DNA of 64,000 nt from Amoebophrya sp. A120 (taxonomy: Eukaryota > Protista > Dinoflagellata), in assembly GCA_905178155.1 (NCBI GenBank), contig CAJINV010000007.1, positions 3,552,265-3,616,264 on the forward strand. The letters are read 5' to 3'. Of the stretch, positions 1 through 59,600 are shown piece by piece. How positions within the stretch are numbered: position 1 is the first letter of the stretch; every line of letters starts with the position of its first letter. The translations under genes were made by a program, and so were the position numbers. The notes under the pieces were generated by a model. The model was not told the origin of the DNA. It did not search any database and was given only the letters and a program-made list of their open reading frames with translations.

Positions 1-1612
1 AGATCAGAAGTTCCCTCGGTTCACCAGCCCTTTCGCAACAGCTGGCACGCGTTGTCAAATGGCCAAAACCCCTCGCACCACTCCGACTGCTTCCCCTATG
101 TGGAGCCCGACAATCCAGAAAAGAAAAAGAACTGCTGGAGCCGGTCCGTCACGGCGTGGCAGGTCCGCGGGAAAAACTATCTGAAAGACAAGAAAAAAAT
201 CGCCTCGCCCCCGCCCTTCGCGGTAGGCCTCGCGGCCGACATCTGTGACTGCCCCACGGCATTAGCGGTGTACGCTAGGCATCCAGAGGGATTTGTTCAG
301 GTATAGATTGATGAAACGACTTTTTCAGAACAAGAATTATGATGGATTTATTCGTAAAAATTTTGCGATCTGGATGAAGATATTGATATGATATGGACCA
401 TGAGTAGAACATCTTCACATTGTTCTTCGTGGTACGCCGCGAAATCGGAAAGAATAATCCCAAAATCAACAGCGTTGTCGAAAGGGCGGAGAGGGTCGGT
501 TTCTGTTCGTGCTGAACTTTCGCTTTACCCCGAAGCATATCCTTTGCAAAAGTATCGTACTCGTACAAATGCCCGTCTTGCATGACAGATCTACTTGCAT
601 ACCTGCATCTGCATGACAAGTTGCGCTTTTTCTTCTGCAGAAATTTGTCATACTCCTTCTACTAGTGCGATAGTTTTGTAATGCATAAAGCACATGGTCC
701 TTGTGTGGGCCCTGGACCACAAGGAGTACCAAGACCCGATGTTCCAGAACTTTCTCTCCCTGCCGCCGGAAGAGAAAAGCAAATATTCTGAGTAAAAACG
801 TCCCCACCCCAGAGTTGTCATGCAAATGTGCATGCCAAAAGCATCTCATGCGGAGCCCCGTGAGAAGCTCTTTCTAGGCGAGTTTTGGAGTTTGTGATGC
901 TACAATCAGCATGATATGCTAGATTTATGATGCCCTGCTGAAATAGCCAAACAGGATTACACTTTGAGGGCAGACTTGTGATGCGAAACAAACAAAACTG
1001 GTTGATCTGTCTAGCAGGTTTGCCATCTTGATACCTTTCTGGGGACGTTTTTCCTCGCAATAGCAAACGCTTCAAATTCATCCCGTGCCTCGTCGAAGGC
1101 CCGTGGCTGGTCCGCCAGGCGGTGGGGACTAAACCGGCACTGCTGGGCAACAAAATTAAGTCCGATTGGTACCAGGGGGACGACTTTATAGAAATGTCCG
1201 TCGACATCTTCTCCTCCTCGTACGCCTCGCAAAAGTATCGCACTTCTAGTGCAAAACTGCATCACAATTTTTTTCAAGAACAAGGATGCAAGTTGTCATG
1301 CTATGTCAGGTGCTTAGAAAGAAAAATTAAGTTAGGGTTGTCATGCATGACTGGAATTATTTTTACCTGTGCGATACTTCTTTTGCAGAGGATACCTCGG
1401 CAGCCAGGGCGATTTTGGGGGTGACCAGCGGTGCGGCGCGGAAACTGATTCTGGAATTCGGTTTGTTGCTGGAAGGGCAGTCTGTGGACGAACTACCGGA
1501 GAGGATGATGACCGGATTTCGCATCATTTTCCCGGACCTAGACAAGGCGAGACTGATGTCTCCGGAGGAGGGCATGCCGCTGCTCAAAGGAGGCGGGGCG
1601 GCGCAAGGATAG
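1..1612 (+). CDS. EDR2 C-terminal (DUF1336) domain protein, 5' partial, 5 exons in window
   Basis: Motifs WQVRGKNYLKDKKKI, FLFVLNF, RFKFIPCLVEGPWLVRQAVGTKPALLG, FIEMSVDIFSS, LLEGQSVDELPE are typical of EDR2-C. The frame is continuous after removing GT-AG intron 301-472 and elements 538-687, 784-1062 and 1221-1394, each with one TSD copy. Confidence 0.85.
538..687. mobile_element. TIR introner, family B
   Basis: TATCCTTTGCAAAAGTATCGTACTCGTA ... TACTAGTGCGATAGTTTTGTAATGCATA; perfect TSD AAGCA; removal gives FTPKHMVLVW. Confidence 0.9.
784..1062. mobile_element. TIR introner, family C
   Basis: TATTCTGAGTAAAAACGTCCCCA ... TGGGGACGTTTTTCCTCGCAATA; TSD GCAAA; removal gives EKSKRFKFIP. Confidence 0.9.
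1221..1394. mobile_element. TIR introner, family B
   Basis: TACGCCTCGCAAAAGTATCGCAC ... GTGCGATACTTCTTTTGCAGAGGATA; TSD CCTCG; removal gives IFSSSAARAIL. Confidence 0.88.
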
Positions 1613-2672
1613 CCGAGAAGCCTACCTACGCAATCAGACAGACATCACGACGACGTCGTGTTGTGCATTCGCCACAAGTGCTGGTTTGTTTCTGTGAAAT
1701 CGAGTTCGCCGGTGCAGTTTTCTTCGGTCTTGAAGAGCACTGAACATGTACTATACACCTTTCTCGATATTGAGCAGGACCACTGCTTTAGAGATGAATA
1801 CAGAAATCATATGATAGCGATGTTGAAATAATAATTCTATATTGATCTCTCAAGAACTCGAACTCGATGCTCAATACAATATAAGCTTAGGCTCACCTCA
1901 AGAAACTCTTTCGCAAAAAGTTGACGAGCAATGACTAGAGCTGGAGCTCACGTAATTATTTGAGGCTTTTATTTCAGCAAGAGCTTGTTGCTGGTGTTGT
2001 CATAATATTCCACTGCATCTAGCAGTTTCGACATCATATCGCCGACTCACGACTCTTGGATCTGGAACTTTCGCGGTCCCAAATCTTCGCTGCACCTCTA
2101 TACGCGTTCTGTGGTGGCAACTGGCTGCATCAACTTTATTTCACACTACAGGGCCATGTAAGTCAAGTTTCTGAGCGACGTGATTTTTCGTGTGGCGGTC
2201 ACTTTCGTATTTCTGTGATCTACAACTCGGCGTCGGTCTATAAAACCATGTTGATATAATTACACGTCGGCATAATTCGTGTTTTCTCCTTATACGGTAT
2301 GAATTGTGTCTACTTCGATGTTTTTACGAGACTAACTCCATACACATGACATTCTTTCAAACAAGTCATGATGTTGCATGCTACGAAAAATGCGCACACG
2401 ACGGGTAAATTAATAGCCTTTTAGGGCGGAGGATGGTGAGGACTTGGCTGCAGCCCCCCCCCTCTCGAAGAGGCTACACCGTCGACGCTTTCGTGATTGA
2501 TGGCAAAAGGCTACAACACGAGCCGTTCGCACACGCCAAGCGCTGCAGCAGGGGTACTTGATTTATAATTCGCCCAGCGTTCTCCTTCCGCTGCGAAGGT
2601 GTGCTGGGAGCGCTGGTGGAGGTGTGCAGATTATACGTAAAATCTGCCCGAAGCGCTAAACAAGTTGTCAAG

Positions 2673-5600
2673 ATGACGTCGAACAAGCGCACTCGCAGCC
2701 AGGCCACTAGCCACCACGGCGGTTCATCTGGTAGGAACAACAACAATACGTTTTTCCTTCACGACAACCATAGTGGTCCACCAGTTCCGCACCCGGACAA
2801 CTACAGCCACAATCTCCAGCCATACAAAAAACGAAAGAAGGAGGAATTGAAGGAGATTTTCCGAAGACCTCAATTCGACCCGGAATGGCGACAAAGTTTG
2901 GAAAACTTGTTTCAAAATGTATTGGAAGCAAAAAACAACAATGACAATAAACTAACAGTACAACAAGACACAACATCCGCGAACAAAACTTCCAAATCAA
3001 AACGAAGGAACAGCAAGGACACAGCAGGGATGATGAACAACGACAATTTTCTTTCCAAGCACGAGAAGGAGCAGAAGTTACTGGATCATTTTAACCAGAA
3101 AAACTTTAAGCAGGCGGATGAAACTGCGCTGGAAGCTGCGATCGCGTTTTTGGACATCATGGAGATGCAGAGGAGTGACTTGTTGCAAGAGTTGTTTGAA
3201 AACTTGTCCACGAGTTTTCACGAAAAAATGGAGAAGCTGATAGCGGAAGACGACAAATTTCTGAAAAAGCAGTTCTTCCCCGACACCGAACTGAATTTGA
3301 GCGCAGCGGCAATAGCGCTGAACAGCAGAAGGACAGGAGAGTTGTCCTCGTTGACTACATCAAGTAGTTCTTCTACACAAGCGGTTCTTGTTTCATCTGA
3401 AGGTGGCGAACGGCTGCAGATGATCACGTCGCAACTTCATAGTGCTGAAGGAGGAGTGGGTGATTCCGCTGAAAATCCGGATCTGCAACAAGCCGGTACG
3501 AAAACTCCCAGTGCTGGCGGATCGTCGTCCTCGTTTAGGACGACGACCTCGAATCTGAAACCAGCCACAGCGGAGCAGCAGGCTGCCGCGCGAAACCTGC
3601 AAGCGGCGATCAAGTTTCACCGACAGAAGAAGTTTTTCGGTTCCGACGTGATAGGTGCGCAGGTGTTGCTGGAAGATTTCGAGGAGCGGAAGAGGCAAGA
3701 GAAGCAGAAGAAGCAGGAAATGCGACCACCAGTTTTGAAACCGAGGGACATCTACAAAAACAATCGAGCAGGAGCGGTTTTCCCTACAGGACCACCACCT
3801 GCACCGACTTCTACAAGCGCTTTTGACAATACCTTCAACCTGGCAGAAGTGCATGAACCCGCAGGAAGAACAACAAGAAGTTCTGCCAGTGTAGCTGCCA
3901 GCTCTGATAGCCTTTTCAATGCGGTGTCCGGCCTACTGCAGGAAGAAGAAGAGCAAGAGTTACAAAATGCCGCCAATATTAATGGTGCGACAACAATCGC
4001 GACGACTGACCCCGACCTGCTTCTCTGGCGGACGCAGTCCGCCGCCCAGAAACGGATTCGCTGGGACGAAATTTTGTGCGATTTGGTCCGTTACATCTCC
4101 GTCCCGGAGCTGCAACCGCTGCTGAAACTAGTTTTCCCGAAATTTATCCGGGATAGGGGGCGGACCTTTCCGACCATCCCGCAGCTTGTTCATCCGGGCG
4201 GGGGCCCATCTTCGGGTGGTGGTGGCAATGAGGAAGCTATGCACCTAGCTGCAGCCGCGGAGGATTATTTTCCTCCGTGTTTGATTGTCGACGAAGAGCA
4301 GTTACCAGTGCAGTTTCTCTACGTCTTGTCGTTGATTCCGAAGCCACTATTGGAAACACTCTGTGCAGGAGGTGCAGATGATAAGTCGGACGAGGGTCGT
4401 TGTGTCGACTCACTCGATCTCGTCGATGAAGACAATATCGTATCTTCTACCGATCATCTTCATGACCAGGACCAGATATTACTAGCAGGGCCACCACTTT
4501 TATTGCCTCCTGTTACTCATCATTCCGAAGCACTTGCACGACTTTTTCCGTCTCCTCCTGTCCTTCCCCTTCCGCTGAAACGGGTCATCTGGATATTGAA
4601 CATCCGGCTGAAGCTCGTGTCCGATGTTTTCTCCATTTTGTCGGAGGTGATGCAGAAGGAAAGCTATTCGGACATCTTCCGCTTTCTCGACCACGATCAG
4701 GATGGTATTTTAACCAGGACGGACATTCAAAACGCTCTGGGAAACGCGAAGACCAAGGACAACAAGCCGCTGTTTCGGGGGCAGATGAAGAAACACGAGC
4801 TGAAGGAAATCGAGGACATTTTCGTTTCCGGGAACTGCTCGGTAGTGAAAAGTTTCGGAAGGGAAAGCTTCTTCGCGGATATAGTTGCTGCGGATCATCA
4901 TCACGGTGGTCCTCGTGGGGCCCCCGGACGAGCAGCGGTGGATGAACGCGAGCTGCAGTCAGCTCGTGGTCTTGCTTTTGGAGGTCAGCACGACCATATT
5001 GATTTTCCCACTTCTGCCGGTCCCGACCAGGCGGACTTCAAATACCTCTTTCTCCAGGTGAACGCCTGGCAGGAGTACTGCTTTCACACGAACCAGCAGC
5101 TGTTTTTTATCAACTGCATCGAATGTGTCTGGGTCATCTGAAGTAGAGTGCGCTATATTTCTCATGCACGTTTTGCATAACCTTAACCCATGACGTCTGT
5201 GATGCATGTTCTAGCAGCGCAGGTTTTTTGAGGGCTGTTCGATGCCTATGCTGCAAGAGAAATGCCCTTTTCGCGCAGCAAAAACTGGACTCCTTTTGCT
5301 GCTCATGCAATACAGATCATGCTTTTCGAGTTCAAAGGGAGCGTGACCAGTTGCAGTCGCTCTCCTCCAGACCCAGACGTATTTGCATTGCATATTTCTG
5401 GACGACATACAGTCTCTCGTTCGACGCTACGTCCGCGAGAAGCGACAGCGTCACTGCGGCCTGGCGCTGGCCTGGATCAAGACGAAAGACCGAGCGGACT
5501 TGCGGAAACAGGACAAGACCTTGCAGAAGATCTTGGAGCTCATCGGCGATAGCAGATTGCTATACGTATGACAATGCGCAACTCGACGTCCCCCTCCCCC

Positions 5601-8600
5601 TTATTTGTCATGCAAAATATCAAATCAGCCCTACCTTTTTCCTCGCCCAACCCCCGGGGAGGGAATCCTTGGCCTGTGGCGCTGGGTGCGGGTGTCCACT
5701 ACATGATGACGATGAAGCACTGCTTGCGTGGCAGGTTTCGGATGCGCAAACAGAACTAGAATCGGTCGCAAATTAGTCATACAAAAGCTGCATTTATGCC
5801 ACCGCGTGTGTTGCTCTTGCTGCTTTTGCCCTTCAAATGAGGTGGAGGGGGCGGGGTTCTTGTGCACTCTCATAATGCGCGACTCTAGTGCAGTACTTGA
5901 CGAGCGTGCGGACCTTGGAGGAGGAGAACGACGCAACAGGTGCAGGTGCTGCTGACCAAGCTGCAACTGGTCCACTTCTCGATGATGACCAAGAAGGTCG
6001 TGTAGGTAGTACCGGAGCTGCTGGTGCCCCTACTGCCAGCCACGCAACAAGAAAGAAGAATGGAGTTCAAGTTCTTGGAGAAGCCATGTATAATAATTCT
6101 TCGAGAAGTTCTGGTGCTTCACCACGACACGTCGGCCGCGATTCATCTTCACAAAATCAACTTGAAGATCCCGAAATGTCAGAACCGGGCTTCACCCGCT
6201 GGCGACCAAAAACGAGTACGGACTTCGAGCCGTATTTGTCTATGTTGAGGAATGACCTATTGATGAGTTTCGTCGACCGCAAAGTGCTCGAGCCGAGCTT
6301 AGAGGGCCGGTGGGTCGTGGAGTTGCTTCCAGCCCGGGAACTAGCGCCGCAGGTGGATTACTACTGGCGGCAGGCAGTGCACACGTCGGCTGCGGGTGCG
6401 GGTACAACAACTGGCATAGCTTCAGGCACAACGATATGGGACTGTCAACTGTTACATTTTCGACTCCTGTTACATGAGCTTGTAATTGCACAAGTATGAG
6501 CACACTTCTCCTGTATTCGCAATTGTGTGTTTCAACTTTTTATATCTTTTCTTCTCAAAGTCAAAAGTAGTCAAAGGGGGAAGTTGTACCCCTAGCATTA
6601 CAAGATTCTTGTAACAAGAAACTCCGCACAGATTTACTACGTGCTGTTTAGCCCCCCACCTTCGCAAGTTTGTCATGCGAAGCAGCTTGATCGTGTGGAT
6701 CGATGACGATGTTGGTAGTTTTGCATGGTAAACCCATGTAACAGCTGAGAGCGTTGTAACGTTTGGGAATCCCATAGACGACAACTCCAGGCGGAACTCT
6801 GTCGAAGACGAGCCACCCAATGACACCCTCCTCCAGTGGCGGCCTCGACCGGATTCTGTCCTTTGCCATGGTCTTGACCCGCGACGGGCGAGCGCAGGTT
6901 TCTCTGAAGCAACGCGATTTGTTGTTGCTCCTAGGTATCAACATGCAGGACAATTCAACTGCATCGCAAGCGTTGCACTACGAGGACATGCTAGCTGCTG
7001 CGGCGGAGAGTAACGAGGAAAGGACGAGGGGCGGGAAAAATTTTGCTGACATCCAGCAAAATATTAACAGCAATTGCTACCATCTCACGTCCACAAATTC
7101 TCAGTACAAGCATTTTCAGCCGATCAGCAAGAAGAAACTGCTGCAGGAGTTGGTTCCGTCTTCGAGCCTGAAGGTCCGGTGCCGAAACCCAAATTTGACG
7201 ACCAACGCTCAGTGGAAGTATTACGTGCTGGACACGGCCGAGAAAATCCGAGAAGTACAAAACAAATTTTCGCAAATCGAGTATCGCCCCGTGATTTACG
7301 ACTTTTTCCTCGAGCTGGATTACGCAAAGACCTTGCACACTTCGTTGAGTACTACAACTACGGTGAAAAATGGTAAAATTACAACTAGTACACCAATAAA
7401 TAACATGATGCTGAACAAAGTCTGTCGCAACCTTCACCTCCGCTTTGAGATGCATGAAGACATGAAGCTGATGTACGGCACTTGGCGAATCGCGGAGAGG
7501 GACGAAAATCCGCTGCAATTATCAGCCGAGATAAGAGCAACTGCAGCTCAGCAAACTGGCACAGGAACTACAACTACAGCGGGACCGGGCGTGGTCTCTC
7601 TTTCCCAACAGCAGCAGGTGGATGTGAAAGAGTTAAAATGGAACAGTTTGTGCTTTGCAAAACGAAAGTTGTTCTCAAACTTTGTGAATGCGAAGACGAA
7701 CGAAATCTGGGACGAGCAGGCGTGTCTGATTGAAACGTTGGACCGGCGGGTCATCCCCCAGTGCGGACTCTTCGGCATCAACTCGGACACCGATGTCGAG
7801 TTGAGCCAACTTTTAGTGAAGCAGTTGAACAGCGGCAGCTACTCGGGTGGAGGAGGTGTTGCGAATGCAAATAGTAGCTCTAATGTAACAACTGCTGGCG
7901 CATCATTAAGTGGCTACGAGTCGAAACTACTTCAAACCGCGTTTGTGCTTGCCGATCCAAATTTACACGTGAGTCTCGCGCGGGGCTTGTGCAGCGTGAG
8001 GCAATGGAGCATGCTGAATTCTGGCGCTGCTGGTTCGACAACTACCGGCACTTCTTCTACTGCGTCGCAACATCAAGAACTCTTGACCAACAAGAAAAAC
8101 AATAAATCGCAAGAGCCTGTTGCTGGACTTTCTGTGCTTATCAAATCTCTCGCTGGGGTCGAGGAGCAAAACCAAAAGCCGCGCGGCGGCGAAGACCCGG
8201 GGGGTGGACCAAAAGGTGACCAAAAGAGCATCTTCGACCGTAGCAAGACCCCACCACTCGGAAGCAATGTGGGGCTCATGCAAGGCAGAAATGCAGGCAG
8301 TGGTCGAACAGAGAAAACGCCACGGCTGCTAAACTCAGAAGATTTAATGTTCGCTTCCAAAAAAGCAGCGGGAGCAAACAAATCGCCCACCAAAATTGCG
8401 GCTAAGCAGCATCATGACAAAGAAACCGATCAGAAAGAGAAAGACGACGGCAACAGCCTCCCTGTACCAAAAAACAGTTGCGAGGCCGCGGAATTCCTTT
8501 CACTGGCTTTGCTGTGGCTCGCAGCGCACGTCACTCAGCTGTACGAAATCAGAGCGGCAAGAACGATGACGACGACGAGTACAACTACTAATCGCAGTGA

Positions 8601-10034
8601 AATTGGTGGTAGTAGAGCACAAGATTCATCTCGCAAGCCCAACAATTCCTCGACCAAGAAGGTTCCGCCTTTCGAGCATTTCTTCGAAACCATACTGTTA
8701 GTCCCGTCACAGCCGCCGTCCGTAGCAGGCCCCGCTAGAGGAACGGTAGGTGGAGGTCCATCCTCTTCAGCGCGAACAAACAGCACACGGGCCGGTGGCT
8801 CTGGATTTCTTCCTCCAAATCCTCGACCATCTTCGCAACAGTCCTCTGCTGGAGGTTCAGAACCGCAGCTGCAGCCAGTGTCTGTTGCGTTGCTGCGATT
8901 GCCACGGCACGTGTTCAACCACTCCTGGGAAACGCCACAGAAACTCTTTCAATCCGGCGGCACGAACGCGGAAGCCGAACTGGAAAGCGCTTTTTATAAC
9001 GAGGAAGACGACCTCCAGCACCTCGTGAACAAGCAAGGATCTTCAAACCACGGAACAAAAATTAAGGACAACAATTCTACTTCTTGTCCTTCCCATTCCG
9101 CCAAGCAAACCTTCGCCACCCTGTGTCTCCTCGCATTCACGCTTCGCCACTTATGCACTGCAAAAGTATCGCTATCGTACTCGTAGTCATGATTCCACGA
9201 CCCTCGTCGCATGACCAATCTACTTTAGTGACTGAATCAACATTACAGATTCCATTTTTGTTTCTGAAAAAAATCGTAAATGCAATTCCTACTAGTACTA
9301 TTCTATGCTTTTGCAATGCATACCACTGCTGGGGCGCCGATCACCTTTCGTTGCAGCCGACGTTACTGGAACTGAAGCCGGTGATTGAAACTGGGTTGGA
9401 GATGAGGAAAATGGCGCCAGAAAATTCTTGCGAAAGCAATGGGGTGGTGAGAAACTTGGACAAAGAGGACTACGAGAATCTGATATTAAACGATGTTGAG
9501 CAGCATCATGCGGTTGCGGGGCTTGATCATCACAACGGACGAGGGGACGACACCAGCAAAAACAGTACATCAAGTACAAGACCGTCAAAAATCTCCTGGG
9601 CAGTCCAGTTGTGGCTGCAGACCGTTCTGAATGTCTGCGGCTCCGAAGACCGAGCGACGAGGTTCAACGCGGACATGCGAACAACGGTTCTAAATTTTCT
9701 CTGCGATACCGTGGTGCGCAAATCGGTGTTCGGGTGCTTCATCACGCTGTCGCTGTTGGCGAAGATGTTTTTTAAACTGTCCAGCAAAACGAACTGGGCG
9801 AAGAAGAAAGACGCGGACTACCTGAAGATCCTCGCGAAGACGGGGAGGATACAGGATGAACGCAATGCGGATGGTTTTTTTCACTTTCAAAAATGGTTCG
9901 AATCTATTGTCGACGCGTACGACAGTCTGAATTTGCAAAACGTGAGCAGCAACGCAGATTTAAGAGAGGGGGATGACCATTTCATGCACGAAGAGTGGTA
10001 CTCCTGCGAGTTCCACGAACGGGCACCTCATTGA
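2673..10034 (+). CDS. NELFB: NELF-B/COBRA1-like protein, greatly expanded by low-complexity insertions; 3' end uncertain
   Basis: Ordered motifs AIAFLDIMEMQRSDLLQELFENL, YISVPELQPLL, LKRVIW, NQQLFLDDIQSLVRRYV, LQKILELIGDSRLLYATLVQYL, LRNDLLMSFVD match the order of conserved NELF-B blocks as recalled. Introns at about 5108-5394, 5567-5874, 6494-6777 (GT-AG) and 9152-9322. Confidence 0.7.
5108..5394. mobile_element. TIR introner, family A (degenerate)
   Basis: TATCAACTGCATCGAATGTGTCTGGGTC ... GACCCAGACGTATTTGCATTGCATA; TSD TTTTT/TTTCT; removal gives NQQLFLDDIQ. Confidence 0.82.
5567..5874. mobile_element. TIR introner, family D
   Basis: TATGACAATGCGCAAC..CCCCCTCC ... GGAGGGGGCGGGGTTCTTGTGCACTCTCATA; TSD ATACG/ATGCG; removal gives LLYATLVQYL. 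Confidence 0.8.
9152..9322. mobile_element. TIR introner, family B
   Basis: TATGCACTGCAAAAG ... CTTTTGCAATGCATA; perfect TSD CCACT; joins ORFs 6820 and 9084 as LRHCWGADH. Confidence 0.9.
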
Positions 10035-11639
10035 AATTGATGTTAAACGAGATCCGGCTGGCGCTGGTGGGGCTTCATCTCCGATTTCCAACCGTCCCCA
10101 ACTGCAACGTCGTACTACTATACATGCAGATATAAGTTGTAGTAGTAGATTGCAATGAATCAGAATCGCATTAGGACTACGACAAGCACATGCGAGAAGA
10201 GCTGCCATGACCTCCGCATTGTGAAATGTTTTTCGCTCTTTTACTTTCAAGAAACGCATAAACGTTTCCATCCCCGTTGTTCCTCCAGAAAGTGCAGCTG
10301 CAGCTCGTAGAAGAGTATGTATGTCGCTCTTGCTAATGATGATAGCGTGCGTAGTATCACTCGTTCACAGTTGAATTATGCGTGGCGACCACGAGGAGCT
10401 CGAGCTAAAAAGAGAGAGAACTTCAGAGAGGGAGAGAGAGCGAAAGCGATTTCCGCTCAAATCTGTGCGGAACAATCTAAAGGAGGTGTTTATCGCGCTC
10501 GTTGACCCCTTCTCGTTCGCGGTAAAGGGTCGTGATCTGGTGCTTGTTGTCGATGTCACAAGTTTATATGCTTCGTATAATTTGTTCTGTGGAGACGAAG
10601 AGCAGCCGGCTCAGGCTGCGAGTCTATGAGCAGTGATTTTGACGTATCAAGAATATGTAGATACGACAACTGTAGTTGATGCCTCATCAAATTCAATTAT
10701 CGTTGTCAGTAAGTAGAACTCGCTGCCGTTCAGTATCGATCGCGTCCGTTTCATCTTCTTGTTTCATCAACACACAGAAGAGCTGATAAAAACTATTTTT
10801 ATGCTGGCGAGGACTCTAGCGTCATGAGTGGCCCTATTTATACTAGTTGGTAGTTCATCCCGGCGCAGCTCATACTATTTTATCAATGCGGTCGGAGGAC
10901 AACGCCTACACAAATTGCAATTAGTTCCCCGTAAGATTGTAACGTTGGGTCTGACTTAGCTGAGCTCCTGTGCATCACTAATGATAGTAGGTACTATGTA
11001 CAAAAAATGTTGGAAGATGAACAGCGTGTAATCTTGAAGAGAACTAGAAGAGTGAAGACTGGCAGTCTTTTCCTGTGCTTTTCAAAGGCGCAGGACTAGG
11101 CAGAAGTCCATGTTTTAGCAGCGTTGTAGTTCTTGTATCCGCCGATGCCGAAGATGCAGTTCCTTTCAATTTGCCACGTCGCGGAATCTGTCTGAAGGTC
11201 GCCAAATTGGGAGATGAAGTGGCATGATTCGCTTTACTTATCTTCCTTCACACTAGAGTTTGATAAACATTTTGCTTTTAGGCAACAACATAACTACAGA
11301 AAAAAGTATCCATTGATGCAATTAGCAGGAGTTCTCCTCCGGAGTGGGATAGTCTAGCGTAGCCGTCGAACAAGAAGCAGAAAAACAGTTGTAAAGGAAA
11401 AGCCAATTATTTTAGGTCGTTTGTAGTGCGGGCAAGAACTCGCTCAGCGCCGCAAAGAGCTGGTGAAATCATGAGACTACGACACAAAATAAATGCTCAA
11501 GTTGACATCAAAATTTCTATGATGCATAGGACCACAAGGAAGTACTACCAGAGAAAAGAAAGCAAAGTGGCAAACAGCTCGACTGAATCGAAGTTGTCCG
11601 AGATGAAGTTGTTCGTAGAAAAGAAGTAAACCAAAAACT

Positions 11640-22063: not shown

Positions 22064-23211
22064 ATGTGGAAAGAAAATCACTGGTGAAGGAGAAAAGGAA
22101 AATACTGCTGGATTCTTGCGAAGGGCAGTGGGAAGTGATGGATCTAGGAGCAGCTTGATCTTCAAAAGATAGAAGTGATAAAGAACGTCGAGACTGACGA
22201 GATAAATATATCCACCAAAGACGAACTAAATAATCTTCTTTCATTTTACACTTTCTGAGCAGTCGCAGGAGCAGACAAAGCCTTCTGGCTGCGTCAGCAT
22301 CGAACTTGAAGACGTGATTTTCTTGAAGTACACTTAATCGCCGAAATTTACCTGAGTTTAAACTAATCGCAAAGTTGACGAAAAGTATCCATACGAACTA
22401 CCGACAGTTTGAAGATAAGATTTAAAAAAGTTTAGTTCCCGATAGGAATTTCAAATCAAGAAGTATCAACCTCATCGAAGAATATACTCTGTGCAAGCAA
22501 GCGCCTGCATCGCGCAGTGTGTCGCAGAAGTATCGACAGCTTTAGAAATAAAGTGAGTATCGTCCCGATACAGGTGAGAAGTCGCAATGCTTGACTGAAT
22601 CTTCCTGCTGAAAGCACTTTTTCTGTTGAACTTACTTTCTCGATCAGATTCCGGATATATAAAGTGAAAGAGCACACCGAAAATTAATTGCCAGCCTTTG
22701 AGCAGCTGGAGGAAGCGCAAGCGTCTCAGTCGTGACCGGCGCAGGAGCTGTTAGTCTTCTATCGATCGCATTGCGTCATTGGAGATGCAGTTGCACACCA
22801 GCCGCTGTCGAGCGATTTTGCTGCTGTAGCGGACTTTTCGTTTGGTTTCCGGCATATTGAGAGAACTGCGATGGGTTGGAACTACACACCTGCTGAATGA
22901 CGCTACGTCAAAAAATGCCAATATGGAGATCGTCTGGTTATTGCTTCCGACCTTGGATGAAAATGGATTTGGTTGTTCTTATGACAAACCGACTATGAAA
23001 ACTCGAGCCCCGGGCTCGGCCTCCACGACCAGAAACAACCGATATTCAAACTTCTCTGGTGGAGGGACGAGAAGCAGTAGCAGCCTGTCGTATAATTCAT
23101 CCTCGAGGACGCGACGTTTTTCTTTTTTCTTGAGAATACAGACTTCCCAAAATGTGCGCCAAACGGAATTGCTCTTCGCACGCGACATCTGGTCCTCCCT
23201 GTGCCACCCTC

Positions 23212-24585: not shown

Positions 24586-25253
24586 CTCCTGTAAAGTTCT
24601 CTATTCTCCGTGGTGTGGCATTTCGTGGTCCTGTTGTAGTAGACTAGAAATAAGTTGATGAAGACGACGTGCTGTGTAGTGTGTCCTCTGGCAGCTACAG
24701 CACGATGACGATGTGAGCCAAGCTGCCGCGTTGAATGATTTCCTTTGCGAATCATGATCATGAAAGATGATTCATGCGCGAAACTTTTGCGCAGGCGCCC
24801 GCACAATTGACAAGTGTGCTCCTTCGAATGCGAAGCCTGTGAACATCATGCGTAAAAAGATGTGTTCACATGCTCAACAGAGTGAGCACCTCTTCCTCTT
24901 CAACCGCGTTTGCCTGTGTGGTTCTACACCAGCGATCTTCGCAATTGGATTGCTCACAAATATTATTGCAGATAGAACTATTCCCTCGCCGCGGCAAAAA
25001 AAATTGATCTTTCGTGATTGATGCGGTCGCAGTGTGCTCCAGGTCTAGGACCAATCTTGCAATTACTAGTATTTTTTGACCGTTATTTTTCTTACCAGCT
25101 GAGTATCGATTCTGTTGTTCCATTGTTTTCAGCTGCGAGTAGACGTATTTGCAGACCGCGAGGTATTGCACTGACACCGAGCTCTCCATCGTGCTGGTGG
25201 CGGTGTTGACGCCAGTCTTTGTGCGGGTTAACACCAGTCAGTCTTACTTCGAA

Positions 25254-49421: not shown

Positions 49422-49998
49422 AAAAGAAGGTAGGCGTTCATTCAGCTACTCGTTCATGTGAGAGGCTGCAAATCGGACGATTGAGATTCATTGTGAAACT
49501 CTGCTACAACAACGTAACAAAGATGAATGGGCAGAGAAGCAAGTGCAAGGAGGATACCATGCCTCGTATCACCGACATAGACGTCGTCGAGGTCGAGGAC
49601 AACACAAACATGATCTATCTCTCACGACATAGAAAAATAAACATGACCTCTTGTGATATTTTGTTACGCCAGTCGCAGTTGTTTTTGGGTTTTGTTCTTC
49701 GTTTTGAATTTGATGAAGATATCGACAAAACGGCAAAACCTGAAGCTGTCGAAATGCTTGCTCAGTTGTTTTCCTTAGTGGTGATAGACCAGAATAAAAG
49801 CGTACAGGAGTGGACTTCTCATCCGCGAAGATTGGCAGGCCTTTATACCTGACCGAATAGCGTAGTTTTTGTTTCTTGCAATACTTTTTCTCCTGGTTTT
49901 TTTAATAAGATGACACAGCTAGTTGTTTCCTTCTCCTTGTTCGAGAATTTCTTTTTCGTCTTGAAACTAAATATAGTCTGACTCAACAAGGACCAACA

Positions 49999-52746
49999 AT
50001 GACGCACCGCACCCTTCGTACTCGTTTCGTTTCGTTCAGGCCGGCAGGACAGCGTCCGATAATTCCCTCCGCCGCCAGTACTGCATGTCTGTGGACAGAT
50101 AGCAGTGATTTTCTTGTAACAGGTCGTGCTTCCTCATCAGTTCGTCGTGGTTGCTCCTTGCAGCGGTCGCGACCAAGAGGATTCTCATCGGCAAGAACCC
50201 AAGCAGCGCCGCTTGCGGGTTCTTCTATTCACGATTCGGTTGTACCTGCGCAGAAGGAGCAACTTCTGTCGCCTACAGCTACCCTCGAGGACCACGAACA
50301 GCCGGCCGGACCGAGGAACCGAACTACTGGCGAGCAAAGTTCTGCTCTAGACACGATTGCCAGCACTGGTGATCAACAAAATGCCCTCGACGAAGATCCG
50401 GAGCGTGCGCCAGCTGCTGGTGCGCAGGAAGCACTAGAAGTCGAGCAGGAGGTGGAAGAGACCACAAGGCCGATCAACTTTTACAATCTACCGAAATACG
50501 GTATATCCGGACCGAAGTCGGTAATCGAAAACTGGCCATTTCTCGTCCGCAAATCATTGAAGCAGGACCTCCAAAGCGCAACCGACGTTACGTTCGTCTT
50601 CGGCCCGCAAGGCAGCGGCGCCCGGTCGGCGATGCGCAACGCGCTCGAGCGGGAGCTGGATTTCGATTTTTACGGATTCTGTAGCGCCGACGAGAATTAT
50701 GCAACGGCAGAAGAAGGAGAACAACAAGATTGGAGAGCGTACAGCTTTCCTTTACTGGTCGAAACTTTTGTCGAAGAGCTGACAGAGACCATCCCGCCCA
50801 TCGGCCCTGCGGGCTGGGAGGAACTCAGAGACGGACCGTTTTTTGAAGAGCTACAGAAGCCGAACCCAGTAACAGAAACAGTCCGACACCGACAAGGTCT
50901 AGGAAGTCGTGGCTCTACTATTCGCACTGGTACTCGTGCTGCTCCCCAGAGCCTGTCGCTTGACCGTCACTGGCTCACCCTTTGTGCGAAAATCGCCCTG
51001 GACGAAGTTTCCCCGGACCAGCACCCAGCCGTTTCTTCGTTGCGTGAAACTAGCGCTCTTACGGACTCAGAGTGGGCGGACTTGCGGCAAAGGCTCGCGA
51101 GTGTCCTGAAGAAATCTCCTCCGGCGCACGAAGAGGGCGCAGCTGGGAAGAAGACCATATCAAAAGGCAAGGAGTGCTGGCAAATTTTCTGTGATGCGGT
51201 GAGGAGTGTCAGTGTGATGTCTCCATCATCATCCGGCGAAATACCTGCTGTTGACGCGTCCTCAACCGCGTTTGACAAGGTCGAATTTCTTGTCGACCTC
51301 TTGACGAAAGATCTTGTTCCAGGGAAAACAAGCAGCAGCGCCAGTAGAAGGTCCGCATCAACAGACCAGAACTCCACGTCACTGCTAGACCAAATCTATC
51401 ACTTTCTGCTCTTTCTCCGACACACGAGGATGCTGCCTTCGGCTCTGCCACGCACTGCCTCCGGAAGTGGAAGTGCTGCTGCACAGGTCGATAGCAATTC
51501 CGAACGGGATCAAGAAAGAGAAAGAGAAGACCACGTGGACGATCTAGGCCAGGAGGCCTATCCCAGTGCCGACGTCCTCGCCTTCGCTAATTGTGGCGCT
51601 TTGCTTCGGAACTTCAACAGTCAGGAAGCTAGTTACCAAGGAAGCAGTAGTATCAACTACGGCGCGAAATTTCTCGGCCTGGTCGAAGCCGTTTTCAGCG
51701 GCCATCCCGTGCTACTGCACATGAATGGCGACGGCATGGCGTTGCTGGAGCAGAACCCGCAAAACCTCATCACGGTGGGCCTGTTGAGCGAAAAGATGGC
51801 GAAGTCCCTGTGCGAACTGGTGCTTGCGAAACATAAAATTTCTTTGGAGTGCAACTTGCTGAAGAATGCAGAGCTGCGGAAACGGTACGAGGTGAAAGCC
51901 AACCCACTGGAGAACCACGTGGACGAGTTTTACCTGAGTTACTGGGACTTCAAAACGGTGTACAAGTTCCTGGGCGGCCACGTGCGGCACTTGAAACTCT
52001 TCTTGCAGGAATTGATCGCCCTGGCCGCGAAAACGGAAAAGCCAACGACCCACGAGGAGCAGGACAAACTCCGCCACGAGTTTCAGTGCCCGAAGAATCT
52101 GACGCACCAGCTCCTGCGGGTGGTGCGCCATGCGGTATTAGCGGGGGACACGTTGCAAACCGAGTACAAAATCCAGTACTTCTTGAACAGCTGCGGACTG
52201 TTGATGCAAGAAGGAGACCAAGATGCGCCGGAACACGAGCAAGACCACTTGGAGCGAAAGAACGCGAGTAGTAGTGGCCTGTGCGACGTTCACGTTGAGG
52301 AACAGAACGAGTCGGAGTCCAGCAGTGAGCTTTCATCTTCGCTGCAGGTACAACAAACACAAGGCCAGGACCAGAAGAAGTCCACAAGTGCATCAGCAGC
52401 ACCAACACCAGATTTCGCTGCTTTCCCGCCGGCCAAGAAGATGCGGATCATGGAGACGGTCCGGCTTCTTATCGATTCCGACGCAAACCAGGGGGAAATT
52501 CTCGTGAACAACAACTTCGATATCACAAACCCAGTTCTGCTGGCCCTTCTCGACGCGCAGCTGCTAATTCCCGACTGGGATCCCGCGAGGTTGCAATTCC
52601 CGAACGAGTACACCAAGCACTGTTTGCGCCTCTGGGTAGACGAGGAATTTTTGAAGTTAGGAAAGTTGGAAAAGCTAAAATACCAAGCAGCGTGCTGGCA
52701 GGAACGAGAAGGGATTAAGCAAAGCGTGAAAAGGATTTCTTGCTGA
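49999..52746 (+). CDS. Putative mitochondrial P-loop/AAA-like protein with degenerate Walker A
   Basis: Arg/Ser-rich transit-like N-terminus; VTFVFGPQGSGARS (Lys absent); late VYKFLGGHVRHL motif; intronless 915 aa. Confidence 0.6.
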   Translation: MTHRTLRTRFVSFRPAGQRPIIPSAASTACLWTDSSDFLVTGRASSSVRRGCSLQRSRPRGFSSARTQAAPLAGSSIHDSVVPAQKEQLLSPTATLEDHEQPAGPRNRTTGEQSSALDTIASTGDQQNALDEDPERAPAAGAQEALEVEQEVEETTRPINFYNLPKYGISGPKSVIENWPFLVRKSLKQDLQSATDVTFVFGPQGSGARSAMRNALERELDFDFYGFCSADENYATAEEGEQQDWRAYSFPLLVETFVEELTETIPPIGPAGWEELRDGPFFEELQKPNPVTETVRHRQGLGSRGSTIRTGTRAAPQSLSLDRHWLTLCAKIALDEVSPDQHPAVSSLRETSALTDSEWADLRQRLASVLKKSPPAHEEGAAGKKTISKGKECWQIFCDAVRSVSVMSPSSSGEIPAVDASSTAFDKVEFLVDLLTKDLVPGKTSSSASRRSASTDQNSTSLLDQIYHFLLFLRHTRMLPSALPRTASGSGSAAAQVDSNSERDQEREREDHVDDLGQEAYPSADVLAFANCGALLRNFNSQEASYQGSSSINYGAKFLGLVEAVFSGHPVLLHMNGDGMALLEQNPQNLITVGLLSEKMAKSLCELVLAKHKISLECNLLKNAELRKRYEVKANPLENHVDEFYLSYWDFKTVYKFLGGHVRHLKLFLQELIALAAKTEKPTTHEEQDKLRHEFQCPKNLTHQLLRVVRHAVLAGDTLQTEYKIQYFLNSCGLLMQEGDQDAPEHEQDHLERKNASSSGLCDVHVEEQNESESSSELSSSLQVQQTQGQDQKKSTSASAAPTPDFAAFPPAKKMRIMETVRLLIDSDANQGEILVNNNFDITNPVLLALLDAQLLIPDWDPARLQFPNEYTKHCLRLWVDEEFLKLGKLEKLKYQAACWQEREGIKQSVKRISC

Positions 52747-53657
52747 TCGAAATAAATGGGTTGTCTCTTTATGACACTGGTGACAGTGTGGTCGACATGG
52801 AAAGTGGTAAATTTATTTATCGACGTGTGGACGATGCATCTGATGTGATAGACTCAGACTTCACATCACGACTAAGAAATATTTTGAAGCATAGAAATGC
52901 CCTCTGCGTGCTTCTTGCACGATGGGCAAAAAGAACAAGCGGAAGCAGAAACTCAACGAAAAAAAGTAGTGTTGCGCTCCCTGCACTACAGCTACACCAA
53001 GGGCCCGACCTATTCAGCAGGTCATCGGATGATCTAGTTTGTTATGTGGCGTGGCCTTCATCTTCAAGATGAAGGAAAGTCGAATCCACATTTTTGATTG
53101 ATTATCAACAGCATGGCCATTGTACAACTGCTTTAGACAACAAAGGATCAAACTGCAGCAGATACGATCAACAACAGCTCAACCTCGATCAGGATTTTCG
53201 CTTAACTATCAAGATCGCTGCAAGACGATTTAGAAGTGACCCATCAGATCGTCGAACTTTTCTAGAGGACGACTATTTTGTGCGCTCATTCATTCTTTGC
53301 AAGCAAGTATGCTTCTTTGAGTCACCCGAAACCTCTACGACGTCCACCAATGGAATTGCAAGTAGTGTACTAGCCCTGAATGGTACACATGCGCCCTTTC
53401 TACCTATCCTCGATGTTGTAGACCGCATGTGTGTTTTTATCGTTATCCAGGTGATTACGCTAGTATTTCGTTTGCTGCATTGGCCTTCTCTAAAACTTGT
53501 CTCCTTCTCCACAATAGCGGCCTTTAGGTTTGCTTCCTTTTACTACGAAGACAGAAAATAATTGTTTTGAAAAGTAATTTCATTCGTATCTATAGGTTTT
53601 TTTTACAACGTATCGCTATCTTTATCGAAAAAATTGACTTGTGTCCACTGCTCAAAA

Positions 53658-56600
53658 ATGGAAGGGACCTCAAACCTCGACCTCCAGGAGGTTATGTCCG
53701 GATTCGGAATGTCAAAGCCGCGTCCCACTTTACTTTTTGCTTTCCTTGTCGTCGGCGGCTTCATTTGTCAGACGGAAGTCGCGGCGCATCGAGTTGCGAC
53801 GAGTGCTGCTTCCTCATCGTCTCAGAATGATGGAAGCACTCGACGAAGATTTCTCGCGCCGCAGGATAATGAAGAAGAACTGACCACGAGAGCTGGTGGT
53901 GCAGCAGCATCTGCAATGCAAGTGGATGTTGAGGAAGGTGAACATGTCTCGCCTGAGCACGACCAAGAAGGAGTCGGACCAATTTTCGGCCCACGACCCG
54001 AGCAGCTTGGAGCGAACTTGTTTGATGGGGCTCGTAGCGGACCCGGACCAGGCACTTCGAGCGCACGACCAGTGCCCGTCCTGCGAGACCACGAAGGCAG
54101 AGGCACTTTACTTGCAGATGACATCGAGATCGACGACGCGCATATCATGGCTCCTTTTGCGGACGAGGTAGCGGACGCAGAGCGATTCATCCGGCAATCG
54201 GTAGATGGTGGGGCCGGTCGTGATGTAGATGCGGCCCCCGAAGATGATCGGGGTGCAGTTGTGCTTCATGGCGAAGAAGATATAGAAGATGTTGGCGGGG
54301 AGCACCAGCAGGCCGCCACGGCGCATGATAGTGATACGGAACAAGCACCCCACCCAGACCAAGATGAGGCAGAGGCAAACGCAGATTCGGACTCAAACGA
54401 GACGTCAGAGGACGAAAATGACGCGCTGCGGCCAGAACGCAGGCCTAAGCCCAGCAGCTGTTCCCGTATTACATCTCTCGCTGTGAAGTCCTGCGCTCTC
54501 TTCTTCGGCGTGGTTCCTCCTTTCTTCTGCCTTACGACTCTCCGGCCTCATGCGCGGGTGATAGAAGCCCGAACCAAAGCCTGGAACAACTTTGCTGCGA
54601 CACAAGAAGACAAGTTTGAGACGGACGCATGGTATCGGAACCAACGAGCCACCCGACACCTTGTTGACTTGCCGCCGACGCCTTTCCGGGTGCGAGGCCA
54701 TGAGCACGATGTATGGGCGTTGATTGCTTGGCACCAGCAAAAAGAGCGCGTTTCCCCTTTGCCGACCCCCCACAACAATGTCGGCGAAATAACCTTTTCC
54801 CTTGCCGGCTCTGGGTATATGCACTGCAAAAGTTGTCATGTTATCGTGGTCGCTAGTAAAATTCGCAAGATGAATCAGCTGCACAATAATCTGATATACG
54901 AAAATATTTATTTTGAAGATGGAGATGCAGAAAATGAAAAAAAGGCACATTTGAATTTGTCATGCCAGACCCAGCAATTGAAATTTTTCGAATTACTGCG
55001 AGACGAGCGATATTACTTTTGCACAGAATGACGTCCGAAAAGTTGCAACTGATGTTGTTTCGTTTTGCGGACACGGTGCTCAAAGACGACGGAATCGCGT
55101 CGTTGTACGTGTTGCGAAATACTCAGCTGGAGATGCGGTCGGTGCTGCAGTCCTGCATTGACATTACACATGTGGAGTACAAAAGGCAAAACGCAGCGAA
55201 TTACCCAGACGAACAAATCTACCAAGACACTTACAATACCGCGCTGGAAAAAATGCAAGCTTGCGGAATTGCGATACTGAATGTCATCGATGCTGTAGGG
55301 TTGCGAATGCTCCAGTCAAGAGAGGAAGTAGTCCACGCCGCCGGAGGCGGGGATGGAAAAATTAAAAGCACTAGTGAACGACGACAAGAACTGAAGTCCA
55401 AGAAGCAGCTTTTCACTTTGCTAACGCTCAGTCTGGCGCTCTCGGAACTGGACGCGCTGGAATTCCCGGCCTCACCGCCGAAAAATCAATACGTCTTATC
55501 TGGAGCGCATGGGCAAACATATGCAAGATGATTTTATTACAACCGCCGCACACGTACAAAACCTCCATGCATACAGAAATTTTCGACCTCGAACTCTGTT
55601 TTTGAATAAAATACGGCGTTTCAATCATCGTCTAGGTCTACTTGTTATGCTGAATAGCAAACAAAAATAGTCCTGTTAGGCAGATCGATGAGGTGCCACT
55701 TGGAACAAGTCAAGTTGTACGTGTGCGGTGAAAGTTTCACTGTGGATGCAGCGTCCTGGCTGGAAGAAAGCTTTTTCGGTGCTCCAAACCCTGACCGTGT
55801 GAAGGAACAAGAGGAGGAACTTGAGCGAAGACGGGACATAGAAGCACTACACGATGTTGAGGAGCAACAAGAAACCGCCACCGCGCAGCAGCATGCTGAA
55901 CTACCAGGCACCACAGATACTGATATTACAAAAACCAAGCTCACGACGAGTTCGAAGAGGAAGTTCAAGCTGCCGAGCAGGCTAGAGCGATGGACTGGCA
56001 GCGACATGCTTGTCTGGCTGTTGAGGAGCAACGACCTCACTATGCTACACCTGTACTCGGCCTTAGAAAATCTGCAGCACAAGTTTGTCGAGTACTTTCG
56101 ATACGTACGGGACGAGGTAAGTGCCGTTGATCCACCTCGACGGTCGGCATTGTCCGCGGATGGGGCCAGTGGAGGAGATGGAGACCACGACGAATATTGC
56201 CGGCAACAAGATCATACCGAGGTAGATGCTGATGGCGTGGTCACCGTCAGAACTGGGGTGCGGAATCCGATAGCGTGTCGCTTTTCCCGCTTCGCTCGGT
56301 CGTCCGGGTTGTTCCTGACTACAACTGGGGGTTCTAGTGCAACAGATATGCTGTCGTCGACATGGGGATCCTTTGCTCTTTCATGGAAGAATCTGAATGG
56401 CGCCTGGCAGTCAATGAAAGAGGAGGCTCGGAGGGAGTTGCTCCAGCACACCCTTGGAATGGGAAGCCGTGTGGCGTCAGTACGGAATCTTTTGCAAAGA
56501 CGCATATCGGAAAAGGCGTTCCTGGAAGACGCATCAACTGTCTCCGTCGATGCCTCGTCGGCAACCGCGACCGCGACGTCAGCTGGCGATGGAAGTAGTT

Positions 56601-59600
56601 CATCTTCCCGCCCCGCGAATGAAGATGTGCTGATCAAACGGCCAGAAGTAGACGAAAACAAACTCACGCAAACCCACTGGACCAGTGGAATGAAGATCTC
56701 TCCACGCAATCCTGACGACCTCTTTGCCATGGAGCTGGAAAATGAGGAACAAGATGATGGTCCTGCTCCTCATTACAAGAAGGCTTTCGACCTGCTCCGC
56801 TTTACCAAAAACGAGCTGCAGCCCCGCCTTAACCGGTTTTTCCGGTTCAGCAAACATGACCAGGTTGTTAGAAACGGCGAAGCGAAATTGACGCAAGAGC
56901 AAAAGGACCACTACTTCCGGAGGATCCGCGCCGCGCTCGGAGGAGACGAGGAAAAGGCCCTGCGCCTATACAAGACAGTGGAAGAGTGGGCCGAGGCGAG
57001 AAACCTTTCCGGGAAGGACGAGCTCGCAGCTTTGCGAAAGGAGGGGGTGTATGCAAAAGATCTGCTATTCCTCAACCGTATCCTGCTTGCCAATATCAAA
57101 TGCAAAAGTGTCTGGGTCTGGAAGAATGCAACTTGTGATGCTGCATTTGCGTGTCTAAAAAGTTTGTGTTGCATGAGCAGCATAAGGAGTCTAATTTTTG
57201 CCACGCGGAGAGGGCATTTGTCATGCGGAATAGGCATCAAGAATCCCTCAAAAAAGAAAAACCTGTGATGCTAGGGCATGCATCACAGTCAGACGTCATG
57301 GCTCATGCAAACCGTGCATGACAAGTCTCAGAATCTTCCAGACCCAGACATTTTTGCATTTGATAGCCAACCCGGACGAGTGGGAGGCACAGTTCACTTG
57401 CGAGGCGACGATGGACCGGTGGTGGGCCGCGGGAGTGGAGAAATCAAAAAGTGCTTCTTCTTCACGAGTAGAAGAGGACAAGGAGGACACGACCGAGGGC
57501 GAGCTTCTCGACGTAGTGCACAAATTGGAGCGTCTTTATCTGCTGTCACCTTCCTCATCTGCTGGTACCGACATCACTGGCAGGAGCGCCGTCGGAAGCA
57601 GCAGCACTGGTCGTGCCCCCCGCGGCGCGCCGACATCAGCACAAGAGCGACGTAGTGCTGATGTGGCAGCAGATGATTTTGATTCAGAAGCACGTCGGAC
57701 ACAAAAAGAACAAGAAGTGCCTGCTGTTCGTGTTCTTTCATCGTTGCTGGAAGAAGATGTTGAAGATGCTACAGCTCATCGTCCCGAGAGAAAAGCCGCG
57801 CTGCTCGTACGGAACTTGCTCCAAAAATCTACTCGGTCTCGTCCGACGGGGGCCGATGCTGAGCGACAAAGGATTCATCTCCCGGGTGGAGGATCGCAGC
57901 AAATTATAAGCGATCCGAGTATTGCAACAAGAACAACGCTGACCACACCTTCATCCTCAGCGGGAACTTTTGCTTTGAACAAGAAGAGCACTTCGGACCT
58001 CCAGTACGAGGAGATGGTCCGTATTGGAAAGGACTACGTAAACGCAAACCTCAACGGGCATCACAACAGGTGGTCCGAGGCCTTGCGATTCGCCTGGCTA
58101 ATCCAGCAGGGAGGTGCAGTGATTGACGTTGATCTCCTACGATTTCTGTCCTGGTTGGAGGACCTCATTCGTTTGATAAACAGAGATACAAAACAGAAGG
58201 ACGGACGAGTAACAGACCGAGAAAAAGTTTTCAAGGTTTTCGAGGAGTTTGAGGAGGAGCAGTGCCAGGCGAACTTGGTGGAGCTAGGAAAAGCATTGGC
58301 TTCTCAGGCGGAGAAATTTCTTCAGGATAGTTTACGCATTTTTGCAAAAGTCCCTCGCCCGGATGAACAATTGTGTTTGTTGAGGCACGGAAATACCGAA
58401 TGTGCATATACTTCTAGCACACACATAATCATGCCCGACTGGTTTTGCAGATAAAATAAAACAAGAAGATGAGATCTGCGTTTGTCAACATTTTGTACCA
58501 GCACAAACCCAATGGGTATGATCGGGCGATTGCGATGCTTTTGCACGGGATAGGAGTCAGAAGATACCGACTTGCTGTCGTCTACGTGTGCGGCCGCGGA
58601 CGCAGAGTTTGGTGACCAGCCAGAGCAGGACCCCAGTGCCGGCGCAGCAGCATCATCAAGCGGGCAAAGATCAACAAGATGCGAAAGGGACGCAGGAACA
58701 ACTACACTTGAGCAGGACTTGCTGATGATTTCAGAAGAAGGCCAAAATCCGTGGCTTCCATTGTTGGACTTGGCAGCTAGAGCACGTGCCGCTGCCATGC
58801 TGGGAAAAACAAAGACGCGCGTCGGCGTCGATCTTCAGCATGAAGACAGAAAAGCACAGGAGAAACAAAAAAAAGGAGACCTACTCCGAAGAGGACGAGA
58901 TCGAGATGATGGAATATTAAAAGTAGCACGTGCACCAGAACCACTCCAGTCAAACGCAAAGCACGAGTTTCTGAAGCGTTTCGTGGAAAGGTTGAACTCC
59001 CTTAACTCCGAGGTGATCTCAGCAATAATTGGAAAAGGACACGAAGAGGTGGTGTTCGGCGCACAGAAGCACACCCACGCCGCGGACCATTTGCTCACGC
59101 AAAGCAAAAGCTTTGCCGCGCTCTCAGGCGACGAAGTTTCTACTTCCGGGACCATCACCAGCTCCTGGGCCCACAGTCCCCCGAAGGTCGTCAAAGAGGT
59201 AATCTTACCACTACAATTGCGGCTGTGGACCATCCTCAGGGACGCGCTGGACAACTGGGAGAGTGAGTTTCTGCAGGAGGAGTGGAAACAATTCGTAAAC
59301 CAGGTTGCATACCCATTGGAACAAAAAAATAGTAGTACCGGGCGCGGCTGCGAAGGCTTACTACAATTTTTATGGGATCACATTGGCATGACAAGATGAC
59401 TCCTTTCCTACCTTATGCAACAACAACATCAAAGGATTGTCCATCTTTTAGCTATGCTGAAATTTGAATTTGTAGTGTTGCAACATGTTGTAGTACCTGT
59501 ACTGGTTTGTACGGGTAGTGCGCCACCCGGTATTTTTAACACTTGCTTTTTATGTTGCATACTGCTAGACCGCTCTTGGTGTCCTTCGCCGCACAGGACC

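Follow-up and report, generated by a model that had tools for sequence, protein, structure and literature searches.

We analysed a 64,000-nucleotide stretch of the Amoebophrya sp. A120 genome (contig CAJINV010000007.1, positions 3,552,265 to 3,616,264 of the forward strand; hereafter the window) and confirmed that copies of one small introner element are removed cleanly from transcripts whichever way round they lie. The elements form copy families, are present in the DNA, carry TAT...ATA tips and lie between 5-bp duplications. They are non-autonomous inverted-repeat transposons that are removed both ways together with one target duplication. The cuts likely keep a fixed register because each repeat tip probably acts as a donor at the leading end and as a branch-type end signal at the trailing end. 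Two exon queries returned database proteins of Amoebophrya sp. A120 at 100% identity: P0001 (1295 amino acids (aa), PF16858 and PF06278, positions 11640-22063, condensin-II-H2-like) and P0002 (1663 aa, positions 53658-59860, a + strand gene).

Local inverted-repeat and repeat scans of the window revealed many short elements with TA(T)...(A)TA ends and 5-bp direct repeats. With terminal inverted repeats, target duplications of constant length, short size and many copies, they correspond to miniature inverted-repeat transposable elements, that is, non-autonomous DNA transposons. Family A comprises eight copies with an asymmetric interior, four forward (5108, 19704, 20036, 34732) and four reversed (37604, 37976, 46718, 57094). 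A BLAST search of both strands with the copy at 19704 gave near-full-length plus-strand matches at 5158-5387, 20036-20299 and 34732-34987 and minus-strand matches at 37609-37856, 37976-38237, 46718-46988 and 57094-57365 (71-82% identity, E 3e-29 to 7e-76). The diagnostic internal motif was forward in 4/4 forward copies and reversed in 4/4 reversed ones. BLAST strand, internal motif and alignment thus agree with the original prediction that family A occurs in both orientations. Its claim that the family C copy at 784 is inverted relative to those at 14099 and 37166 held as well: this copy matched 14109-14378 (76%) and 37195-37438 (72%) on the minus strand.

The prediction had placed the clearly assigned host genes on the + strand; a + strand host was borne out for ten of the eleven copies. 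For the copy at 784, an EDR2_C Pfam match lies on the + strand and a GT-AG intron is present in the same transcript contig; a Pfam search of 11 exon translations gave one match above the curated cut-off. The host of 5108 forms a 2114-codon open frame after splicing, P0001 covers 14099, 19704 and 20036, and P0002 covers 57094. The copies at 37166, 37604 and 37976 share one stop-free + frame (codon score 34.9 versus at most 11.3 on the minus strand). The interior of 46718 has stops in all frames; its host protein was not found in a database protein search. Only the host of 34732 was not clearly assigned: 153 spliced nucleotides (nt) after an N at 34443 favour the + strand weakly (codon score +5.4 versus -1.7). 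This N is probably an assembly break that cuts off the host. A 179-nt duplicate (99%; 34264-34522 and 40010-40188) abuts it, followed by the orphan right end of an A-like element.

Removal was then read from transcript contigs of runs X1, X2 and X4, whose kind is guessed as RNA in the record; X1 and X4 stem from one sample, and the three runs together represent two. Among the 11 named copies, six are skipped by these contigs, three by database proteins only (14099, 19704 and 57094) and one by joining of open reading frames (46718). The contig skips include family A forward (5108, 20036) and reversed (37604, 37976) and family C inverted (784) and forward (37166). In positions 1-13500, 2 of the 13 joints were DNA repeat-to-repeat joints; in 19500-39000, 15 of 32 joints were listed, six of which linked different repeat copies and were excluded. 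In all 18 of the listed element joints the removed sequence was the element plus exactly 5 nt, one target duplication. Families A and C are removed with equal precision both ways, and either orientation becomes an intron, as had been proposed. Depth inside the copy at 19704 (8.8 at 19799) was lower than that of its host contig (33.6).

Such skips could also arise if the assembly had collapsed or if the cells lacked the elements, whether by presence/absence polymorphism or by excision from the DNA. The guessed kind of X1, X2 and X4 would allow this, as would the reach of the DNA control run X5, which was compared over 1-13500 and leaves 19500-39000 without a DNA control. In addition, the raw RNA runs X8 and X9, of the same species label, are unmatched to unique sequence: only repeat ends matched (136 and 3 reads), with no joints. 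However, the same contigs skip GT-AG introns (297>470, 20611>20787) and therefore behave as spliced mRNA. Their identity to the exons is 99+%, no other letters occur in 1-13500, and as many as four consecutive elements are skipped, while X5 carries the elements, extends across their borders and has none of the 11 RNA joints of 1-13500 and no joined form. We consider this explanation highly improbable. The X8 reads match the family A end only (19921-19972 and 37977-38024, 90-95%) and then continue into other sequence; since they match that end but not unique sequence, family A is present in the RNA of a related organism.

We next compared orientation with coding strand in a larger set. A pattern scan gave 144 of about 460 estimated loci, all from one related assembly that has no unique sequence in common with the window; after dropping duplicates and copies with fewer than 4/5 duplication matches, we were left with 128 copies of A or A' (A' is a subfamily with the same terminal repeat and another interior). 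Strand was assigned by a codon model trained on the window genes, which in a leave-gene-out test at 240 nt gave 122 right, 1 wrong and 8 undecided. Family A lay with the predicted coding strand in 41 cases, against it in 47 and was undecided in 10; a stricter cut-off gave 38 and 38. The tabulation against host strand that the prediction had called for therefore shows no bias among the 88 strand-assigned A copies, as a prediction from DNA rather than a measure of splicing. Perfect 5-bp duplications flanked 159/186 related copies, which were pre-filtered to at least 4/5 matches. Frames stayed open in 96/101 cases when the element plus 5 nt was removed versus 84-86/101 for plus 4 or 3, a weak preference. 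Four single short loci (L001, L004, L050 and L061) each hold three or four A/A' copies in mixed orientations.

To describe where the cuts fall, we counted the bases of the upstream duplication that lie inside the intron (k). Only mismatched duplications reveal the cut, as perfect ones hide it, and 11 of the 18 RNA-supported copies have mismatches. A k of 1 fits 18/18 RNA joints, k = 2 fits 17, k = 0 fits 14 and other values 10-13. The chance that one register fits all 11 mismatched duplications under random cuts is 0.028. Four copies (12935, 20848, 37166, 37604) set the bound of at least 1. Proteins P0001 and P0002 contain 29 junctions, six GT-AG and 23 of the element type. At the protein-only junctions k = 1 fits 16/16 and other values 7-12; the site 13644 allows only k = 1, and 14999, 17879 and 58333 only 0 or 1. 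With k = 1 in all junctions the intron reads N-TA(T/C)...ATA-NNNN; the left cut lies 1 nt outside its TA and the right cut 4 nt outside, a staggered pair. The 34 element introns of the window have 24 different end-dinucleotide pairs, none of them GT-AG. These results argue strongly for an intron of the form N-U-A-(U/C)...A-U-A-N-N-N-N that has no need of GT-AG and accepts any target. Consistently, Table S4 of Farhat 2021 gives T at +2 in all nine predominant A120 non-canonical motifs (PMC7789003), and 6/7 canonical introns of the window begin with GTA(T/C), matching the element donors at +2, +3 and +4. The duplication of the + strand intron 1220-1398 also permits a CT..AC reading, which is how a canonical intron of the minus strand would look; introns like this could be assigned to the wrong strand by aligners.

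Co-option of canonical GT/GC and AG from the target duplication or the repeat, with removal by the ordinary spliceosome, is a known route for other introners (Aureococcus-type), and one protein-only junction (14464) admits GC-AG. But none of the 18 RNA joints has GT/GC...AG ends in any equivalent register, which refutes this route unless the contigs are wrong, and only 6/186 related target sites would give GT-AG at k = 1. We regard it as the least probable explanation of all.

The two tips of the intron differ in which of their bases are invariant. All 34 window introns have T at +2, A at +3 and A at -7, while the mirror positions vary: +4, the mirror of -7, departs in 8/34 (Fisher p = 0.005) and -5, the mirror of +2, in 4/34. 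This asymmetry was noticed post hoc in the window and then tested on 186 of 210 distinct elements of the related loci, whose strand had been assigned without reference to the tips. There we found four departures at +4 and none at -7, six at -5 and none at +2, and one each at +3 and -6; the 10 departures at the two mirror pairs (+4 with -7, -5 with +2) all went the way that the window predicts (p = 0.002). Adding eight DNA-only copies to the window set, for a total of 42 elements, gave 10 versus 0; this count is not relied on, as one host strand was assumed. What is kept thus seems to be a donor-like N-U-R in the leading tip and, in the trailing one, an A seven bases before the intron ends. Both demands are satisfied by a TAT tip that is intact. 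Each signal has a direction, but the two coincide on one repeat tip. The proposal that the information for removal is strand-symmetric was right in that the TA(T) tips carry information, but it is not simply symmetric: the cuts are staggered and the invariants differ (+2 U versus -7 A). An intact tip would supply both signals in either orientation, and a decayed copy would no longer be reversible. At the fourth tip position (intron +5 and -8), C or G occurs in 33/34 and 31/34 introns and the two are complementary in only 18/34, pointing to a base preference rather than pairing.

Alternatively, the register could be fixed while the tip asymmetry reflects strand-biased mutation or family history, with a symmetric DNA- or RNA-binding factor marking the ends. 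Only 12 departures at these positions were counted in the window and 10 in the related assembly, the copies share ancestry, and both ends are equally conserved within young A copies. However, A>G occurs at -5 and never at -7, and T>C at +4 and never at +2; the same mutation types are thus kept at one position and absent at its neighbour, and this was repeated in a second assembly and across families. We therefore judge this explanation improbable.

A further possibility, nearest to the original prediction, is a structure-guided, non-spliceosomal nuclease and ligase, as proposed for euglenid nonconventional introns. It would cut 1 nt before and 4 nt after an RNA stem formed by the paired terminal repeats, and orientation would be irrelevant because such a stem is symmetric. 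Strong end duplexes are predicted for young copies in both orientations (-39 to -50 kcal/mol at 19704, 20036, 37604, 37976 and 57094), and the constant stagger relative to the stem would fit a structural ruler. U1 snRNA was reported as undetected in A120 (PMC7789003), and euglenid introns with paired ends leave as circles (PMC11282704). Against this, the repeats show no excess of G-U over A-C mismatches (136 versus 143), and sense duplexes are not more stable than antisense ones (end duplexes 19 versus 14, p = 0.30; whole elements 24 versus 10, p = 0.096). Predicted end pairing in register is near zero in several removed copies (12676 and 5108 by RNA; 13644, 17879, 58333 and 59310 by protein). 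Moreover, departures at the tips follow a direction, and some of them are changes that do not pair (C or T at -5; C, A or G at +4). The 3' U-tract was conserved in excess at borderline significance (p = 0.067). The hairpin may help removal, but selection for an RNA hairpin was not detected, and the claim that it is needed is not supported by these data. We consider a stem-guided nuclease unlikely, though a serious candidate.

Two-way internal motifs, which had also been thought necessary for removal, proved dispensable. In 8.9 kb of elements we counted the GCAT-n-ACA motif 65 times, versus none in the seven canonical introns, but its strict form is absent from 10/34 removed elements, three of which are RNA-supported. 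The repeats of this motif are more likely transposition signals.

We favour a modified U2-type spliceosome as the probable agent of removal. By analogy with group III introns, which retain little more than NUNNG and a near-terminal A (PMC3534033), and with tunicates, whose spliceosome became adapted to introns derived from transposons (PMC11282704, PMC13326754), it would use U+2 as donor, branch at A-7 and take the acceptor by distance, 6 nt further on, rather than by AG. Because both strands of the tip read TAT, a copy that is intact presents a GUA-like donor (U+2) at whichever end leads and A-7 at the other. Paired repeats might bring the ends together without being a necessary recognition signal. 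In A120, U2, U4, U5 and U6 have been reported, with U1 not detected (PMC7789003).

Several points weigh against this reading. Within the RNA data the bound of k at most 1 comes from 5108, a single contig of depth 6.1. The protein-only sites that support the same bound come from a database annotation that may not be independent of the contig runs, and the element ends at these sites were chosen by the same motif. One strand-undecided copy (L031) would break the A-7 rule if its host lay on the + strand, and the copies are related by descent, which makes counts not fully independent. In canonical introns of the window, A-7 is not fixed (2/7), and two 3' rules must therefore coexist. Branching at A-7 is itself an analogy, since the alignments establish only an invariant A, and 6 nt between branch and acceptor is shorter than usual spliceosomal spacings. 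Finally, the A' subfamily is skewed in the related assembly (18 with the coding strand, 8 against, 4 undecided; p = 0.076).

Table 1. Elements and introns in the window. Removed lengths are given in nt as element plus duplication; k as defined in the text.
Feature	Position	Strand	Intron; duplication	Joint (removed length)	Source
Family C, inverted	784..1062	-	783-1066, fixed register; GCAAA/GCAAA	777>1062 (284 = 279+5)	X1, X2, X4; joint absent from DNA run X5; EDR2_C-domain + strand gene
Family A, forward	5108..5394	+	5107-5398; TTTTT/TTTCT, k = 0 or 1	5106>5399 (292 = 287+5)	one X2 contig
Family C, forward	14099..14378	+			condensin-II-H2-like gene; skipped in P0001
Family A, forward	19704..19971	+			skipped in P0001; no joint among those listed
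Family A, forward	20036..20299	+	20035-20303	20030>20300 (269 = 264+5)	X1, X4; skipped in P0001
Family A, forward	34732..34994	+	perfect duplication		BLAST; no joint among those listed
Family C, forward	37166..37488	+	37165-37492; CGAAG/CGAAC, k at least 1	37160>37489 (328 = 323+5)	X1, X4
Family A, reversed	37604..37856	-	37603-37860, left tip TAC; TCGCC/TCGCG, k at least 1	37598>37857 (258 = 253+5)	X1, X4
Family A, reversed	37976..38237	-	37975-38241	37970>38238 (267 = 262+5)	X1, X4
Family A, reversed	46718..46988	-			removal with one duplication joins two ~800-codon + strand open reading frames into a 1611-codon open frame
Family A, reversed	57094..57365	-			+ strand 1663-aa gene; skipped in P0002
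A' subfamily	29414..29674	+			BLAST; frame restored; no joint among those listed
A' subfamily	41562..41812	+			BLAST; + frame stop-free after removal
Other TAT...ATA elements, RNA-removed	538, 1221, 5567, 6435, 9152, 11921, 12676, 12935, 20326, 20848, 21440 (within 538..21593), also 36939	+	same register		joints
Older or degenerate elements	13644, 14467, 14697, 14999, 15733, 17240, 17520, 17879, 18959, 54818, 55520, 58333, 59310 (within 13644..59561)	+			protein junctions; skipped in database proteins
Ordinary GT-AG introns (n = 7)	301, 13289, 15381, 16034, 16565, 19447, 20612 (within 301..20786)	+			joints, protein junctions

The features of the window are collected in Table 1. The condensin-II-H2-like gene (11640-22063) has 24 introns, 18 of the element type and six GT-AG, and includes a 17-nt micro-exon (19686-19702, present in P0001) between a GT-AG intron and the family A copy at 19704. 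Nested in the spliced element intron 11920-12441 is an inverted repeat (12062-12300; 98-nt arms, 97%, with inner palindromes), which is probably a second mobile element that landed in an introner. A long non-coding stretch contains three copies (87-92%) of a 103-nt repeat, at 39434-39536, 40423-40525 and 42527-42629. An Rfam search gave no matches, nor did a search of viral contigs with the repeat.

The elements themselves have already been published (Farhat 2021). The introner elements of A120 were described there with repeats that start with TAT, followed by seven looser bases and an A-tract, with direct repeats of 3-5 nt and with RNA-validated non-canonical introns whose borders are called variable or unknown (PMC7789003). 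The window elements match these in organism (by protein identity), in TAT, seven looser bases and at least three A (34 introns), in direct repeats at the borders (5-bp here) and in repeated RNA-supported non-canonical introns. The single register, the invariant U+2 and A-7 and the two-way use go beyond that description as far as its accessible text extends, in which 'orientation' is applied only to genes (PMC7789003); figures 3, S19 and S23 may contain part of the register or two-way result. Our literature search, with subscription journals mostly outside its reach, turned up no paper reporting for Amoebophrya that the elements are used both ways, that the register is fixed or that A-7 is invariant. 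What appears to be new is the fixed register together with the pair of directional invariants.

Two-way introners have precedent elsewhere. According to a review, Huff 2016 found insertion of Aureococcus and Micromonas introners in both orientations (PMC10228655). Aureococcus-type introners are likewise derived from DNA transposons and used both ways (PMC10228655), but the Aureococcus and Micromonas elements co-opt canonical sites, whereas here neither GT nor AG is used and any target serves. The method of Gozashti 2022 allowed opposite-orientation matches (PMC9860276), and that of Gozashti 2025 required ends of the same orientation (PMC12130899). Euglenid nonconventional introns resemble the window elements in their non-canonical ends, pairable terminal repeats, duplication-like repeats and a 3' end with more unpaired bases than the 5' end (PMC11282704, PMC11170887). 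In contrast to their CAG at +4..6 and CTG at -8..-6 and their release as circles, the tips here are TAT and ATA, and selection for pairing was undetected. Fritillaria introns are also transposon-derived and non-GT-AG, and there an adapted U2-type spliceosome has been described (PMC11282704, PMC13326754); they keep AG-AC or AG-AT and U1, whereas the first and last bases here are free. Euglenid plastid group III introns begin with NUNNG and have a branch A just ahead of the four free bases that end the intron (PMC3534033), which recalls the minimal pair of U+2 and a near-terminal A. This is a resemblance only: group III introns are organellar, group II-derived and carry A-8 in a domain VI hairpin, whereas the window introns have A-7 and G+5 in 19/34 and are nuclear and transposon-derived.

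How most introns are removed without GT-AG, and apparently without U1, was stated as open in the genome paper (PMC7789003). The fixed register and the two invariant bases allow specific tests and provide an annotation rule for non-canonical Amoebophrya introns. We tentatively propose that splicing in A120 has been re-tuned to a minimal code of U+2 and a branch A-7, with free end bases and no AG, which coincides with the palindromic repeat tip of the transposons; on balance this is quite possible. If true, tens of thousands of 'variable-boundary' introns would belong to a single class with a fixed register. An intact insertion would then be a perfect intron regardless of its direction or target, and its removal would restore the original mRNA. 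Two-way tip signals would explain how the elements could flood genes without breaking them, and the scale of the invasion would be explained because no insertion site or direction is excluded. If a spliceosome does the removal, its catalytic core does not depend on either terminal dinucleotide being fixed.

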